DNA from: Bacillota bacterium
GTDB lineage: Bacteria > Bacillota > Clostridia > TANB77 > CAG-508
Length of the DNA: 64,000 bases
Direction of reading: 5' to 3'
Assembly (NCBI GenBank): GCA_963928415.1
Contig: CAWVEX010000023.1
Location: 10-64,009, forward strand
In this document: positions 43,351 through 49,615 of the stretch, piece by piece
Position numbering within the stretch: the stretch's first letter is position 1
Layout of the letters: every line of letters begins with the position of its first letter
The notes under the pieces: generated by a model
Database searches by the model: none
What the model saw: only the letters and a program-made list of their open reading frames with translations
Told to the model about the DNA's origin: nothing
Made by a program: the position numbers and the translations under genes

Positions 43351-43722
43351 TTATTCTGCTTTTTTAGTTGTCTTTTTTGTTGTAGCTTTTTTTGGAGCTT
43401 CTTTTTTCTCTTCAGTAGCTTCAACTTTTGCTTCAGCTTTCTTTGCTGGAGCTTTTTTAGCTTCAACCTTAACAGCTAATTTGCTTTCAAGTCTTGATTT
43501 TTTTCTTGAAGCTGCATTCTTAGAAATAACTCCTTTTGAGCAAGCACTATCTATTTTACTTTTTGCTTTAGATAATAATTCTACAGCTTCTTTATCTCCA
43601 TTGTTGTTTGCTGCTTCATATTTCTTTATAGCTGTTTTACATTCTGATTTTATCATATTATTTCTTTTTGTTTTAGTTTCTGCAACTTTAACTCTTTTTA
43701 TAGCTGATTTAATATTTGGCAT
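43351..43722 (-). CDS. rpsT: 30S ribosomal protein S20 with a K/A/E-rich C-terminal extension
   Basis: [12 protein letters not shown]...[14 protein letters not shown] at 43722, 6 nt after GGGAGGTG. The track's GTG start at 43731 lies inside the SD. 123 aa. Confidence 0.9.
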
Positions 43723-43909
43723 GTTTTGCACCTCCCTTTAGTGTATTAAACTATAACATATGATATTATAGCATAGTTTTTCGTATATGACAAGTATTTG
43801 AAGAAAAAAAGTTTATTTGACATAACACAGTTAATTGAAGAAAGTAACTTCTATTCATAATAATAATTTGAAGCTATACGAAATTGCGTTTATTTTTTTA
43901 CAAAATGTA

Positions 43910-43939
43910 TTGACTTTTGTTAATAAAAAGAGTTATAAT
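43910..43939 (+). promoter_or_regulatory. Promoter of the type III TA cassette: TTGACT, 18 nt, TATAAT
   Basis: ttgact at 43910-43915 and tataat at 43934-43939. Confidence 0.6.
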
Positions 43940-43979
43940 GAATATAATAATAAAGATACACAATGTATCTTGTTCAAAT

Positions 43980-44082
43980 CAAATGTTAACCGCCACCCTG
44001 TTGGCGAGATATAAATGCACAGGTGAGCAAATGTTACTCGCAACCCTACTTGCGACAAATAAATGCGTAGGTGGACAAATGT
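43980..44082 (+). ncRNA. ToxI/CptI-like antitoxin RNA: two 48-nt tandem repeats plus a 7-nt partial third
   Basis: Repeat A is 43980-44027 and repeat B is 44028-44075, with 36 of 48 positions identical by hand alignment. CAAATGT recurs at 44076-44082. The region is GC-rich relative to its flanks, and compensatory changes preserve a hairpin and a pseudoknot. Confidence 0.75.
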
Positions 44083-44090
44083 AGCAAGAA

Positions 44091-44116
44091 ATCTACCCTT
44101 AAAAGGTAGATTTTTT
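44091..44116 (+). terminator. Intrinsic terminator between the repeat RNA and the toxin ORF
   Basis: atctacc / ggtagat 7-bp stem with a 7-nt loop, followed by TTTTT. Confidence 0.7.
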
Positions 44117-44134
44117 GTTAGAAATGAGGTTATA

Positions 44135-44605
44135 ATGAAAGTAGAAAATGGGAAATTTTATTTTATAAAAGATAATTTTTTTGATTTATTTAAAGATTAT
44201 AAATTAATGCAAAATAAGGAAAATGGAAATAAAAGACCATGTTATTTTTGTTTTAACGATATAGAAGATGAACGAATAGTATGGTTTGTCCCAATATCTA
44301 GTAAAGTCGAGAAGTATAAAGCTATATATGAGAATAAAAAGAAAACTAGAAAAAAAGTTTATAATTTTGTTTTTGGTAAAGTATTAGGAAAAGAAAAAGC
44401 ATTTTTAATTCAAAACATATTTCCGACGACAGAAGAATACATAGAAAGTAAATATCAAAGTAGAAATCAAGATGTAGAAATAACAGAAAGTTTAAAAAAT
44501 GAAATAATAGAAACCTCTATGAACGTTATACATTTAGCTCTAAAAGGTATTAATATTCCGTTTTATGATATTATAGAAATGAAGAAGATACTAATATATA
44601 ATTAG
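44135..44605 (+). CDS. ToxN/AbiQ-superfamily type III toxin (endoribonuclease), 156 aa
   Basis: SD GAGGT lies 4 nt before the ATG at 44135. KFYFIKDNFFDLFKD...RPCYFCF...VWFVPISSKVEKYK parallels the ToxN/AbiQ N-terminal pattern (KFYTI..YI.YL...RP.IGI...YF.PLSSPK). Size and context both fit. Confidence 0.7.
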   Translation: MKVENGKFYFIKDNFFDLFKDYKLMQNKENGNKRPCYFCFNDIEDERIVWFVPISSKVEKYKAIYENKKKTRKKVYNFVFGKVLGKEKAFLIQNIFPTTEEYIESKYQSRNQDVEITESLKNEIIETSMNVIHLALKGINIPFYDIIEMKKILIYN

Positions 44606-44659
44606 TACCTTCTTTTTATACTTAAATATTATTCATTCACAAAGTTAAGTTTAACTAAA

Positions 44660-44866
44660 CTATCTTAATTGAGATTCAGCTTGTTGAATTAATTTCTTAA
44701 CCATGTTTCCGCCTATTTTACCAGCGTCTCTTGCAGATATATTTCCATTATAACCATCTTTTAATGAAACACCAACTTCGTTAGCTACTTCATATTTGAA
44801 TTTGTTAAGAGCATCTGTTGCTTCTGGAACTGCTTTGTAATTGCTGTTGCTTGATGAATTTGCCAT
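44660..44866 (-). CDS. Alpha/beta-type small acid-soluble spore protein
   Basis: KFKYEVANEVGV.L...YNGNISARDAGKIGGNMVKKLI. The likely start is MANSSS (44866), after AGGAGGTG. Confidence 0.85.
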   Translation of the reverse strand: MANSSSNSNYKAVPEATDALNKFKYEVANEVGVSLKDGYNGNISARDAGKIGGNMVKKLIQQAESQLR

Positions 44867-44967: not shown

Positions 44968-46407
44968 TTATTTTTTTAATTCTTCTAGGAACATTTCATT
45001 AAGCATTTTAGGATTTGCTTTTCCTTTTGTTTGTTTCATTGCTTGTCCTACTAAGAATCCAAGTGCTCTATCTTTTCCTGCTTTATAATCTGCCACTGAT
45101 TGCTCATTTTCTGATAAAACTTTTAGAACAACTTCTTTTATAGCATTTTCATCAGATATTTGAATCCATCCTTTTTCTTCAATTATTTTGCTTGGAGATT
45201 TTGGATTTTCAAATAATTCATCTAAGACTTTTTTACCAATACTTGAACTTATTGTTCCTTTATCTATTAATGTTACCATTTCTGCTAATTCTTCTGCAGT
45301 AAAAGGTATATCTTCTGGTTCTAATTCTTTTTCATTTAATATTCTTGCTACATCTGAATTTAGCCAGTTACATACTGCTTTATAATTTTTAGAAATTTCT
45401 CCTGCTTTTTCGAAAAAGTCTGATAAATATTTTGATGAAGTTATACTATTACTATCTTTTTCAGAAAGACCATATTTATTCATATATCTTTCTTTTCTTG
45501 ATTCTGGCATTTCTGGAAGTTGTTTCTTTATATTTTCAATATATTCATCTGAAAGTTTTATTGCAACTAAATCAGGTTCTGGGAAATATCTATAATCTTG
45601 AGAATCTTCCTTATTTCTCATAGGGAATGTTCTTCCTTCTAAATCATCCCATCTTAAAGTTTCCTGTTCTATTTTGTTTCCATGCTCTAATTCATAAATT
45701 TGTCTTTCTTTTTCATATTCAATTGCTCTTGAAATTGATTTAAAAGAATTCATATTTTTCATTTCTGTACGAGTTCCAAAAGGCTCGCCAAATTTATGTA
45801 CAGACACATTGACATCAGCTCTTAATGAACCTTCTTGCATCTTACAATCTGAAACTTCTATATATTGAAGTATTGATTTTAGCTTTTTTAAATATCTATC
45901 TACTTCTCCAGTTGATCTTAAATCTGGTTCCGATACTATTTCAATTAGTGGAACACCTGCTCTATTTAAATCTACTAAACTTCCTGAACCAAATTCATTA
46001 TGATTTAGTTTTCCTGCATCTTCTTCTATATGAATTCTAAGTATTCTTATTTTTTTAGGATTACCAAAATCATCTTCTATTTCTATATATCCATGATTGC
46101 AAAGTGGTTTATCGAATTGTGATATCTGATAAGATTTAGGTAAATCTGGATAAAAATAATTTTTTCTATCATTTTTACTATCTTTTGAAATTTCACAGTT
46201 TGTAGCTAAGCCTGCTTTTACTGCATATTCCACTACTTTTTCATTAAGTACTGGAAGTGCTCCTGGAAGTGCCATACATACAGGACATATATGTGTATTT
46301 GGTTCTGCTCCAAATTCTGTTGGGCATGAACAAAATATTTTTGTTTTTGTTGATAATTCTGCGTGAACTTCTAATCCAACAATTAGTTCATAATCTTCTA
46401 CTGCCAT
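44968..46407 (-). CDS. gatB: Asp/Glu-tRNA amidotransferase subunit B
   Basis: YELIVGLEVHAELSTKTKIFCSC, NRAGVPLIEIVSEPD, 479 aa. Confidence 0.95.
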   Translation of the reverse strand: MAVEDYELIVGLEVHAELSTKTKIFCSCPTEFGAEPNTHICPVCMALPGALPVLNEKVVEYAVKAGLATNCEISKDSKNDRKNYFYPDLPKSYQISQFDKPLCNHGYIEIEDDFGNPKKIRILRIHIEEDAGKLNHNEFGSGSLVDLNRAGVPLIEIVSEPDLRSTGEVDRYLKKLKSILQYIEVSDCKMQEGSLRADVNVSVHKFGEPFGTRTEMKNMNSFKSISRAIEYEKERQIYELEHGNKIEQETLRWDDLEGRTFPMRNKEDSQDYRYFPEPDLVAIKLSDEYIENIKKQLPEMPESRKERYMNKYGLSEKDSNSITSSKYLSDFFEKAGEISKNYKAVCNWLNSDVARILNEKELEPEDIPFTAEELAEMVTLIDKGTISSSIGKKVLDELFENPKSPSKIIEEKGWIQISDENAIKEVVLKVLSENEQSVADYKAGKDRALGFLVGQAMKQTKGKANPKMLNEMFLEELKK

Positions 46408-46480: not shown

Positions 46481-48130
46481 TTACCTGCCATCGTCTTGTT
46501 CTTCATCACTGGATTTTCTACCGTCTCTTACTATTGTATTGTTTCCTGTTTGAGAGTATTTTATCTTGTCTACTTTATATTTCTTCAAATAATTTTTATT
46601 GTAAAATTTTGTATTATTTGATTTATCATAACTATTCAAGTTATCCTTTATTTTTTCGTATTCTCTTTCAATTCTATCATAGCAATTTTTTAATCTATTT
46701 ATTATTCCTATTTGGCCTATGTCAAAATTTTCATTATACCCTAAAACATTCCTATTACTGTTCATGTAATCTGATATTCTGTTTAATATAGTGTCTCTTA
46801 AATTTGTTTTCAATATATTATCCAAGACACAAGCAAATTGAATTACTGTCGTTATTCTCTTCCTATCATTCTCGCTAAGGTACCATCCATCAGACACTAC
46901 TGTTTTTCCAGTTTCCGAGTCTAAATATCTTATTCTATCAATGTCACTTTTGCTACCCGAATATTTACCATAGAAATGAATTATAGTCTTATCTCCTACT
47001 TTATCAATAAAACTTATATTATAACATTCATTATCTGCAATAATATGTATGCTTTTCATAAAGTCCATGACTACTAATTTAGAATCTGGCAAATATACCA
47101 ATTTTAAATTTTTATTATCTAACCTTTTTCTTTCAAATTCTTCTCTTTGTTCTTTTGTAATAAATTTAGCTAACCAATCTAAAGATATTTTGTCTATATC
47201 TTCTTCTTTTAGTGGAAGTGTAGGTTCTATTGGTTCTACTGATTTTTCAGTTTCTTTTGGTTTTGTTCCAAAATAATCTCTTATTCTCCTAAAAATACTT
47301 TTCTTTTCCTTTGCTATTGCCAAAGCTGTTGTTTCAAGTTCTTCTGTTTTTTCTTCTCGTGAATTATTTTGCTGTATATTAGCACCTCTTATGGCTTCAT
47401 TTTGGTTTTGTACATAACTTAAAAGTTTCCATATTTCATCATCTGCAAATGCTTCTTTTCCACTCATTAATTTATACTTTATTCTTTCTAAGACATTACT
47501 AACCTGTGGAGTAGTATTTTGAGATAATCTATTTATTTCACCATTTAAGAATATTGTAAGACCTGGTATATCTTGTCCTGATATTTCAAACTCATCTATT
47601 GCACCTTCTCTTACTCTTCTTACCATAAAGTTACCATATAAATTGTATAAAGCTTTTTCTATTTTATCTCTATCTTCAAAACTATATTGTGAAATTGAAC
47701 TATCATAAGTTTGTTTTAATTTTTCAAATTCAGTTTCATAATCTTCTAAAGACAGTTTCTTACCATCTTTTTGCATATCTTGTATTTGTTGAAATATTGC
47801 TTGTCCTTTACTTTCTAACACCTTTTGATTTCCGTCATTTTTCTTATATGCATCTAGTTCTAGATTTAACTCAGTATATTTTGAGTAAAATTCCTGTTGA
47901 CTACTTATATGCAATAAAGCATTATATTTTTTTAATAAGCCTTCTGCCGCTTCTGAGTCATACAACAATATTTGAGATATTTCTACTTGCAATGGTTTTA
48001 ACATTGTTTCATATACTGTATTTCTTTGCTCTTGTGTAAACTCTATATCACTCTCAAGTTCTAGTTTTGGTCTTAACATTTCATTAAAATCTGGTAAACT
48101 TCCATTAGAAAAGCTATCTTCTTCTTTCAT
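46481..48130 (-). CDS. Hypothetical 549-aa protein inserted between gatA and gatB
   Basis: Long uninterrupted ORF. AAGGAGGAG SD, with the ATG 12 nt after the gatA stop. No TM segment, signal peptide or domain motif that I recognise. The N-terminal half is helical and E/K/Q-rich, and the C-terminal half appears mixed alpha/beta. Confidence 0.6.
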   Translation of the reverse strand: MKEEDSFSNGSLPDFNEMLRPKLELESDIEFTQEQRNTVYETMLKPLQVEISQILLYDSEAAEGLLKKYNALLHISSQQEFYSKYTELNLELDAYKKNDGNQKVLESKGQAIFQQIQDMQKDGKKLSLEDYETEFEKLKQTYDSSISQYSFEDRDKIEKALYNLYGNFMVRRVREGAIDEFEISGQDIPGLTIFLNGEINRLSQNTTPQVSNVLERIKYKLMSGKEAFADDEIWKLLSYVQNQNEAIRGANIQQNNSREEKTEELETTALAIAKEKKSIFRRIRDYFGTKPKETEKSVEPIEPTLPLKEEDIDKISLDWLAKFITKEQREEFERKRLDNKNLKLVYLPDSKLVVMDFMKSIHIIADNECYNISFIDKVGDKTIIHFYGKYSGSKSDIDRIRYLDSETGKTVVSDGWYLSENDRKRITTVIQFACVLDNILKTNLRDTILNRISDYMNSNRNVLGYNENFDIGQIGIINRLKNCYDRIEREYEKIKDNLNSYDKSNNTKFYNKNYLKKYKVDKIKYSQTGNNTIVRDGRKSSDEEQDDGR

Positions 48131-48142
48131 TGCTCCTCCTTA

Positions 48143-49615
48143 TTATTTTTTGAATGAAGGTTTATGATTTTCTCTAAACTTGATTTCTTGTTCAAATTTA
48201 TATGCAACATTTAGTATCTTTTCTTCTTCAAATCTATTTCCTATTAATTGCATTCCTACTGGCATTCCATTACTATCTACTCCACATGGAAGTGATATTG
48301 CAGGAACACTTGCAATATTTATAGATACAGTACATATATCTGCTAAATACATTTCTAGTGGATTATTGCATTTTTCTCCTATCTTAAATGCTGTTGATGG
48401 AGATACTGGAGTAAGCAATACATCATATTTACTAAATGCTTTATTAAATTCATTTTTTACATATGTTCTAACTTTTTGAGCTTTTTTATAGTAAGCATCA
48501 TAATATCCTGAAGATAATACATAAGTTCCAAGTATTATTCTTCTTTTTACTTCATCTCCAAATCCTTCAGTTCTTGAATTTACATATAATTCTTTTAATG
48601 AATTAAAGTCTTTTGCTCTATATCCATATCTTATTCCATCAAATCTACCTAGGTTTGAACTAGCTTCTGCACAAGCAATAATATAATAAGCTGCAAGTGA
48701 TGCTTTAGCTACATCAAGTGAAGTTTCTTCTACTGTAGCTCCTAACTTTTTATATGTTTCTATTGCTTTTTCTAACTGTTCTTTTACCTCTTTATTTATT
48801 CCCTCTCCAAAGAATTCCTTAGGTACACCAATTTTTATTCCAGTTAAATCTTTTTCTAGATTTTTTGTATAATCTTTTTTCTCTATATTATATGATGTAC
48901 TATCTTTTTCATCATGTCCAGCTATTATATTTAAAAGCATTGCACTATCTTTTACATCTTTAGTTATTGGTCCTACTTGGTCTAAAGATGAAGCAAAGGC
49001 AACTAGTCCATATCTGGAAACTAATCCATAAGTTGGTTTTAATCCTACAACTCCACAAAATGCTGCTGGTTCACGAATTGATCCACCTGTATCACTTCCA
49101 AGTGCCCATGGAACTAAATCACCTGCAACAGCAGCTGCACTACCACCTGATGAACCGCCTGGAACTCTATTTAAATCCCATGGGTTATGTGTAATTTTTA
49201 TAGCAGAATTTTCTGTTGAGCTTCCCATTGCGAATTCATCCATGTTTAGTTTTCCAAGGCTTATTATTCCTTCTTTATTTAATTTTTCTACAACTGTTGC
49301 ATCATAAGGTGATACAAAGTTTTCAAGCATTTTTGAACTACAAGTTGTTTTAACACCTTTTGTGCATAGGTTGTCCTTAATTCCTATAGGAATACCAGCA
49401 TACTTAGATAATTCTTTATTTTCTTTTCTTTCTTCATCTATTTTTTTAGACTCATTTAATGCCTCATCAGTTGTAAGTGTTACAAAAGCATCAACATCTT
49501 TTTCTTTTTCATTAATTCTATCTATGTAAGCTTTTGTTATTTCTTCTGATGTTAATTCATTATTTTTTAATTTTTCCACTAACTCATGTACTGTAAGATT
49601 TGTAATACTCTCCAT
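48143..49615 (-). CDS. gatA: Glu-tRNA(Gln) amidotransferase subunit A
   Basis: Amidase signature [12 protein letters not shown]. 490 aa. Confidence 0.95.

Follow-up and report, generated by a model that had tools for sequence, protein, structure and literature searches.

Locus layout

The window, by which we mean the whole 64,000-nucleotide stretch of DNA that was analysed, carries at positions 43910-44605 a promoter, 2.1 tandem repeats, a terminator and a toxin gene, in the canonical order of a type III toxin-antitoxin locus. The individual features are given below, where S1 and S2 are the two stems of a repeat unit and L1 and L2 its two loops.

43910-43939, + strand: putative sigma-70-type promoter, TTGACT and TATAAT separated by 18 nt (11 of 12 positions match the consensus)
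43953-43971, + strand: leader stem-loop of 8 bp with a 3-nt loop, between the -10 box and repeat A (-6.8 kcal/mol, z = -3.3)
43980-44027, + strand: CptI repeat A (48 nt); S1 43991-43995 with 44002-44006 (CGCCA/TGGCG); L1 C43996; S2 43997-44001 with 44019-44023 (CCTGT/ACAGG); L2 44007-44018, containing AUAUAAAUG at 44009-44017
44028-44075, + strand: CptI repeat B (48 nt); S1 44039-44043 with 44050-44054 (CGCAA/TTGCG) and an optional sixth pair T44038:A44055; L1 C44044; S2 44045-44049 with 44067-44071 (CCTAC/GTAGG); L2 44055/6-44066
44076-44082, + strand: start of a third unit, CAAATGT, which gives repeat B its conserved A-rich 3' junction
44084-44118, + strand: intrinsic terminator hairpin and U-run, between the repeats and the toxin gene (-16.4 kcal/mol, z = -7.3)
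44135-44605, + strand: cptN toxin gene, 156 aa, start MKVENG, with a GAGG ribosome-binding site upstream, 59 nt downstream of the repeat array

Most related loci have the same arrangement of TTGAC... and TATAAT ahead of their repeats. At 43934-43948 lies a doubled -10-like motif, TATAATGAATATAAT, which stays near-verbatim in front of the repeats in groups of loci that have diverged in both repeats and toxins, and in some loci of the E. rectale type the -10 box is bracketed by an inverted repeat, CTTTGTAC...GTACAAAG. The leader hairpin likewise has a position common to most related loci while its stem sequences vary (GATAC/GTATC, GTAGATAT/ATATCTAC, GGTGGAT/ATCCGCT and AAGAACA/TGTTTTT); among the related loci compared it was not found in L011 nor in the group typified by L044, and the type III toxin-antitoxin papers cited here make no mention of such a hairpin as a component of the locus. 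Its role may be to stabilise the 5' end or to insulate the folding of repeat A.

The terminator was predicted from folding, the + strand terminator at 44084-44118 not being listed by a consensus terminator scan, and a GC-containing hairpin followed by a T-run occupies the same place in nearly all related loci. A nested minimum free energy (MFE) fold of the whole leader gave an uninformative long-range structure, the method being one that cannot represent pseudoknots.

The neighbours of the locus are housekeeping genes (S20, an alpha/beta-type SASP, GatB, HPF and CtsR). Only one related locus, L043, shares the S20/SASP/GatB neighbourhood and thus the locus is not syntenic across relatives. Further downstream an open reading frame of 549 aa (46481-48130, - strand), for which there is no Pfam match, lies between GatB (44968-46407) and an Amidase/GatA-like reading frame (48143-49615), where it splits the usually contiguous gatA-gatB pair.

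The toxin gene

The product of the gene at 44135-44605 belongs to the CptN protein family. Specifically, it scores 167.9 bits, over residues 6-153, against the NCBIfam equivalog model NF047359 (type III toxin-antitoxin system CptIN family toxin; cutoff 90), and phmmer matches it to the CptN chain of PDB 4RMO with E = 3.4e-19. The family assignment rests on these two matches because the remaining resources gave nothing usable: PADLOC had no model match for the toxin, Pfam had nothing above cutoff (the only hit, PF20285 with E = 0.076, lies below its own cutoff), and a search of 43700-44700 against Rfam, with E allowed to reach 10, returned chance-level matches only, with no ToxI or CptI family. 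The residues R34, S55, S56 and Y107 are invariant in 34 homologues; S55/S56 align with the SS dipeptide of the E. rectale toxin (residues 51-52) and Y107 aligns with its Tyr104.

A protein collection yielded 833 homologues of the toxin. The longest reading frame that contains cptN, 44063-44605, begins inside repeat B and runs through the terminator, and many database homologues are called as proteins of 180-225 aa, most likely because the start codon has been placed too far upstream, so that the call extends through the antitoxin region. CptN homologues of 31-46% identity are also present on 14 PLSDB plasmids (H1-H14), with carriers in Clostridium, Megamonas, Oscillibacter, Planococcus, Fusobacterium and Peribacillus, and all ten of the plasmid matches listed are annotated as "hypothetical protein"; a survey from 2012 had cptIN on chromosomes only. 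No CptN homologue was found in a search of a phage collection.

Published cptIN loci have 40-48-nt repeats, in 1.9-3.4 copies, and toxins of ~150 aa (PMC3401426, Table 2). The repeats described here (48 nt in 2.1 copies, on the strand of the toxin gene and directly upstream of it) fall inside these ranges, as does the 156-codon toxin reading frame. We consider it highly probable that 43910-44605 is a chromosomal CptIN type III toxin-antitoxin module that works by the mechanism proposed below.

Differences between the two repeats

Tandem Repeats Finder reports a single array at 43980-44082, with a period of 48, 2.1 copies and 78% matches. When the units 43980-44027 and 44028-44075 are compared directly, base by base, they differ at exactly 12 of 48 positions (unit positions 10, 11, 15, 21, 22, 24, 29, 31, 40, 41, 47 and 48). 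Six of the 12 differences form three compensatory pairs, in which 43994:44003 goes from C:G to A:T, 44000:44020 from G:C to A:T and 44001:44019 from T:A to C:G, and the other six (positions 10, 11, 29, 31, 47 and 48) belong to neither proposed helix; every proposed pair can form in both repeats, and none of the 12 differences falls in a column that is invariant among 48 aligned arrays. This agrees with an initial annotation of this DNA, which had counted 12 differences, six of them in three covarying pairs, and had placed the strings CGCCA/TGGCG, CCTGT/ACAGG, CGCAA/TTGCG and CCTAC/GTAGG where we find them. The pairs which it named for mutation need some adjustment, as the covarying stem pair is 43994/44003 and not 43995/44003, and within 43999-44001/44019-44021 the only positions that change are 44000-44001/44019-44020.

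On its own, the compensation seen in the window is suggestive and not conclusive. With the structure fixed on repeat A (ten pairs) and 12 random substitutions, the probability of at least three compensated pairs is 7e-4 and that of no pair being broken is 7e-3. A more liberal post-hoc null, in which any helix of at least 4 bp common to both units counts and wobble is permitted, gives P = 0.005-0.025. An all-Watson-Crick H-type pseudoknot with two helices of at least 5 bp arises in 5-6 of every 1000 dinucleotide shuffles of a unit.

A positive control for this kind of reasoning is provided by E. rectale CptI, a 45-nt H-type pseudoknot with coaxial S1 and S2 that was crystallised in complex with its toxin (Rao et al. 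2015, PMC4627078; PDB 4RMO). We took the E. rectale unit from the primer table of that paper, AAGUUUACCACUGACCGAUAUGUGGUAUAUAAAUGGUCGGGUUGA, which fits all residue numbers in its text except C6, which is a U (PMC4627078). The published S1 was not reproduced by our simple pseudoknot finder because of the limits which the finder sets on L1 and on the junction, and the fold was instead mapped from the residue numbers (PMC4627078). Among metagenome loci of the E. rectale type (L074-L153), many second repeats differ from the crystallised unit by A10G with U23C, G17A with C38U and C15U with G40A, changes which are compensatory at pairs inferred from the sequence together with the helix and loop boundaries given in the paper (PMC4627078). 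Thus, reasoning from compensation between repeats recovers helices that are consistent with a solved structure.

Covariation across species

A scan of one genome per species yielded 69 loci, nearly all with two repeats and a terminator upstream. The array of the window was aligned with 47 arrays of the two closest groups, whose toxins are 59-96% identical, giving an alignment (A2) that holds 40 distinct arrays and was built by MAFFT alone, with no structural information. The pairs tested were those of both helices in both repeats plus the optional sixth S1 pair, which makes 22 pairs and 875 cells.

Of these cells 96.1% are paired, a share that drops to 33-44% once the 3' partners are displaced by ±1-3 columns. 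Two-sided changes occur at nine of the 22 pairs (54 cells), and none of 500 shuffles reaches the observed value for cells paired, for two-sided changes or for the covariation score; the count of further pair types shows no excess over shuffles (470/500). Many of the aligned arrays are related, so that the cell counts overstate independent events, of which we estimate roughly eight or more. The S2 helices, which form the pseudoknots, are paired in 99.0% (repeat 1) and 99.5% (repeat 2) of cells, and S1 of repeat 1 in 94.9%. About one third of repeat-1 cells and more than 40% of repeat-2 cells lack the sixth S1 pair (unit positions 11:28), and the core of S1 is therefore taken as 5 bp.

The stems occur as distinct haplotypes, namely CGCAA/TTGCG, CGCCA/TGGCG and CGGAG/CTCCG for S1 and CCTAT/ATAGG, CCTGT/ACAGG, CTTGT/ACAAG, GTCAC/GTGAA, CCTAC/GTAGG and CCTGC/GCAGG for S2, with G·U intermediates also seen (for example CCTGT/ATAGG), and the S1 and S2 variants are reassorted among loci. 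Beyond the alignment, distant chromosomal CptN loci were parsed by the simple pseudoknot finder to the same element order with unrelated stem sequences, and the plasmid loci of C. perfringens, Megamonas, Oscillibacter and Planococcus show the same topology by eye.

We judge these comparative data, which are drawn from sequence, to be decisive for the fold. The initial annotation had held that selection acts on an RNA structure in which a hairpin loop pairs with the 3' tail and had named covariation at homologous loci as the check; such covariation is present, for both helices of both repeats, across the 40 distinct arrays, and its main claim is sustained.

Alternative explanations

One possibility is that the two non-identical repeats include just one functional antitoxin, the other being a degenerating copy, a question already raised for tenpI repeats (PMC12283969). 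The closest relatives do conserve repeat 2 much more strongly than repeat 1 (repeat B is nearly invariant in L001-L023), and published cptI repeats are described as nearly identical. However, repeat 1 keeps S1 and S2 paired at the levels given above through several compensatory changes, and it retains the invariant AAAUGU.A and GGUG tails as well as the L2 adenines, so that purifying selection appears to act on both units. We therefore regard a single working repeat as improbable.

A second possibility is that each unit forms a simple nested hairpin, as in the MFE fold of repeat B (unit positions 19-27 with 39-47), and that the pseudoknot covariation is a by-product. ViennaRNA does return this hairpin for repeat B (44045-44075, -12 kcal/mol, z = -2.2) and it fits most homologues, with 83.9% of cells paired in A2 overall and 92.8% in repeat 2. 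The helix is, however, rich in G·U pairs and shows no covariation, given that 490 of 500 shuffles pair as well and a two-sided change is seen in 2 cells only. Moreover, its pairs are disrupted in repeat A and in variants with CGGAG/CTCCG, the very cases in which compensation restores S1, and it leaves the joint change of positions 21 and 41 unexplained. The covariation in A2 belongs to the two-stem H-type pseudoknot, and the nested hairpin as the functional fold is very unlikely; before processing, the transcript may adopt it transiently as an alternative fold.

The repeats could also be sites that act at the level of DNA (iterons or operators), or decaying duplicates with no function whose complementarity is due to chance. 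Tandem repeats next to a promoter can be operators, and the post-hoc probability calculated from the window is just 0.005-0.025. Against this, two-sided compensation at nine pairs across species is unexpected for duplex DNA sites, the repeats always lie on the strand of the toxin and between promoter and terminator, the same architecture with unrelated stems is found beside distant CptN genes, and the E. rectale crystal shows toxin and RNA bound to each other (PMC4627078). The initial annotation had argued against both a protein-binding array and noise, and since pairwise compensation is expected from neither, we concur and give these readings hardly any weight. That the repeats encode a small repetitive peptide is the least credible reading of all and was rejected, for although the window has an open frame at 43917-44084 (55 aa) and a period of 48 nt equals 16 codons, stop codons interrupt the same frame in 32 of 48 homologous arrays, repeat 1 is 46, 47 or 49 nt long in 10 arrays and so shifts the frame, and the substitutions are compensatory in pairs, not codon-wise.

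Two kinds of pseudoknot in one array

Given that both repeats appear to fold as pseudoknots, it is of interest how they differ from each other. S2 differs between repeats 1 and 2 in all 40 distinct arrays, S1 is identical between them in 28 of the 40, and each repeat retains its own pseudoknot sequences across related arrays. Cross-pairing of a loop with the tail of the other unit would give 2-4 Watson-Crick pairs in nearly all arrays, compared with five for the cognate tail. Parsed or printed arrays, read by eye, show the same pattern of a differing S2 and an unchanged S1 in CptI lineages that are unrelated (the L044 group, Oscillibacter and Planococcus). On the C. perfringens plasmid pCP346-91 (L070), two unit types of 47 and 50 nt alternate at ~130-370, upstream of a CptN homologue, as a 97-nt super-repeat in 2.1 copies, and each type parses by eye as its own pseudoknot.

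These observations raise the idea that the repeats are kept different by selection and are not interchangeable drifting copies. If this is the case, orthogonal S2 helices could prevent mispairing of loops and tails between neighbouring units of the precursor or, alternatively, the complex could be an obligate hetero-pair in which an A-type RNA joins a B-type RNA. A single ancestral difference has probably been inherited by most of the 40 arrays, however, and the E. rectale locus that was crystallised has identical repeats. On balance we think that a selected difference is doubtful.

Comparison with the solved E. rectale CptI

The initial annotation had likened the fold to that of the ToxI and CptI antitoxins, and it is to CptI that the comparison leads, as the downstream gene is a CptN and the order of elements is that of the solved E. 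rectale RNA, namely S1, an L1 of one nucleotide (here a C), S2, the 3' strand of S1, an A-rich L2, the 3' strand of S2 and a tail. The two systems share the toxin family (E = 3.4e-19 and the NCBIfam CptIN model) and the layout of promoter, about two repeats, terminator and toxin, and both units have a single-stranded 5' tail with a similar AxGUU motif. In E. rectale, L1 is the single nucleotide G13 and L2 the nine nucleotides A27-G35 (PMC4627078). That L2 is A-rich and makes an extended A-minor twist along S1 with a kink at U30 (PMC4627078), and the mutations A29U and ΔU30 abolish antitoxicity (PMC4627078). The sequence of A27-G35, AUAUAAAUG, is found verbatim in repeat A at 44009-44017. The L1 is likewise one nucleotide in the units described here, the L2 is 11-12 nt long with adenines that are invariant in A2, and the equivalents of A29, A31, A32 and U34 (unit positions A32, A34, A35 and U37) are invariant or nearly so in that alignment; A-minor contacts of this strand would follow by analogy with E. 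rectale.

The dimensions are not the same, however. The unit is 48 nt here and 45 nt in E. rectale, L2 is 11-12 nt and not nine, there are no spacer nucleotides between the 5' strand of S2 and the 3' strand of S1, and the junction between units is longer (CAAAUG as against GA^AAG). With such differences, the tertiary contacts in their exact form and the 2:2 stoichiometry may not apply here. The stems have unrelated sequences, and the repeats differ by 25% here while the crystallised locus has identical repeats. The toxins are only ~35-40% identical over the aligned region, and Asp81 and Ser85, which in the E. rectale CptN read the scissile adenine, are not conserved, as they align with Leu and Lys in the toxin described here.

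Proposed mechanism

We propose a mechanism that builds on what is directly established at this locus, which is its anatomy, the family of the toxin, the covariation of S1 and S2 and the conservation of L2 and of the tails. Transcription from a single promoter would produce the short leader hairpin followed by the 2.1 tandem 48-nt cptI repeats. Most transcripts would end at the intrinsic terminator, with read-through giving the cptN mRNA, so that the repeat transcript would be in excess. The CptN endoribonuclease would then cut this transcript at its A-rich junction, which is single-stranded and conserved (...GGUG-NN-NAAAUGU...); the bond broken probably lies within AAAU and is either A^A or A^U. 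All arrays in A2 terminate in ...AAAT(G/A/T), the terminal partial repeats of all loci retain only (C/U/A)AA(A)U, and we infer that the junction at 44076-44082 is a cleavage site. The E. rectale unit is cut after A45 (PMC4627078), and when the 5' tails are aligned (AUGUUA here, AAGUUU in E. rectale) CAA^AUG becomes the more likely bond.

Cleavage would free units of 48 nt, ending after an adenine in a 2'-3' cyclic phosphate as expected of a CptIN system, each of which would fold as an H-type pseudoknot with an S1 of 5-6 bp, an L1 of one C and an S2 of 5 bp made by the S1 loop and downstream sequence, and the A-rich L2 (11-12 nt, ...AUAAAUG.) would lie along S1. The need to keep both stems would account for the three compensatory differences between repeats A and B. 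The single-stranded tails would bind CptN, the RNA would hold the toxin in a closed, inactive complex, and the toxin would be released when synthesis of the antitoxin RNA drops or its turnover rises. The proposal follows the E. rectale system by analogy as regards processing, the stoichiometry of the complex, the A-minor triplex between L2 and S1, and antitoxicity itself.

Relation to known systems

The best known type III systems invite comparison. In ToxIN (of Pectobacterium atrosepticum and Bacillus thuringiensis; also AbiQ) the toxin similarly cuts tandem RNA repeats into inhibitory pseudoknotted units, and a terminator sets the ratio of antitoxin to toxin. In contrast to the 48-nt unit found here, ToxI units are 34-36 nt long, with triplex cores, and assemble as heterohexamers; ToxI repeats are also more numerous and are identical. 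No ToxN or AbiQ chain is among the PDB sequence matches to the toxin up to E = 10, there is no significant Pfam match and no Rfam ToxI, and given also the 48-nt unit, a ToxIN identity was rejected.

TenpIN loci with non-identical repeats are similar in having two long non-identical repeats, each capable of forming a pseudoknot, and a conserved A-rich strand (PMC12283969), but their toxin belongs to a different family, and the tenpI pseudoknots are predictions made by inspection, while both helices described here have the support of covariation across species. A 2025 survey reported cptI repeats to be nearly identical and treated non-identical repeats as a feature of tenpI (PMC12283969), and the 2012 survey could not align CptI sequences (PMC3401426).

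The CptIN family and its fold are already known from a solved structure, so the assignment made here is unsurprising to a specialist, and our understanding of type III systems is unchanged by the locus. What appears modestly new is cross-species covariation support, from aligned arrays, for a CptI pseudoknot previously known from one crystal structure, as well as CptI repeats that are 25% divergent and yet, as judged from the same alignment, both apparently under structural selection. The consistent difference in S2 is modestly new too, and could reflect avoidance of mispairing or a hetero-pair and equally a single inherited difference. The work gives an annotation to a toxin gene that would otherwise carry no label, and to its non-coding partner, in a lineage of gut Clostridia with small genomes, and A2 could seed an Rfam-type family, Rfam having none that matches.
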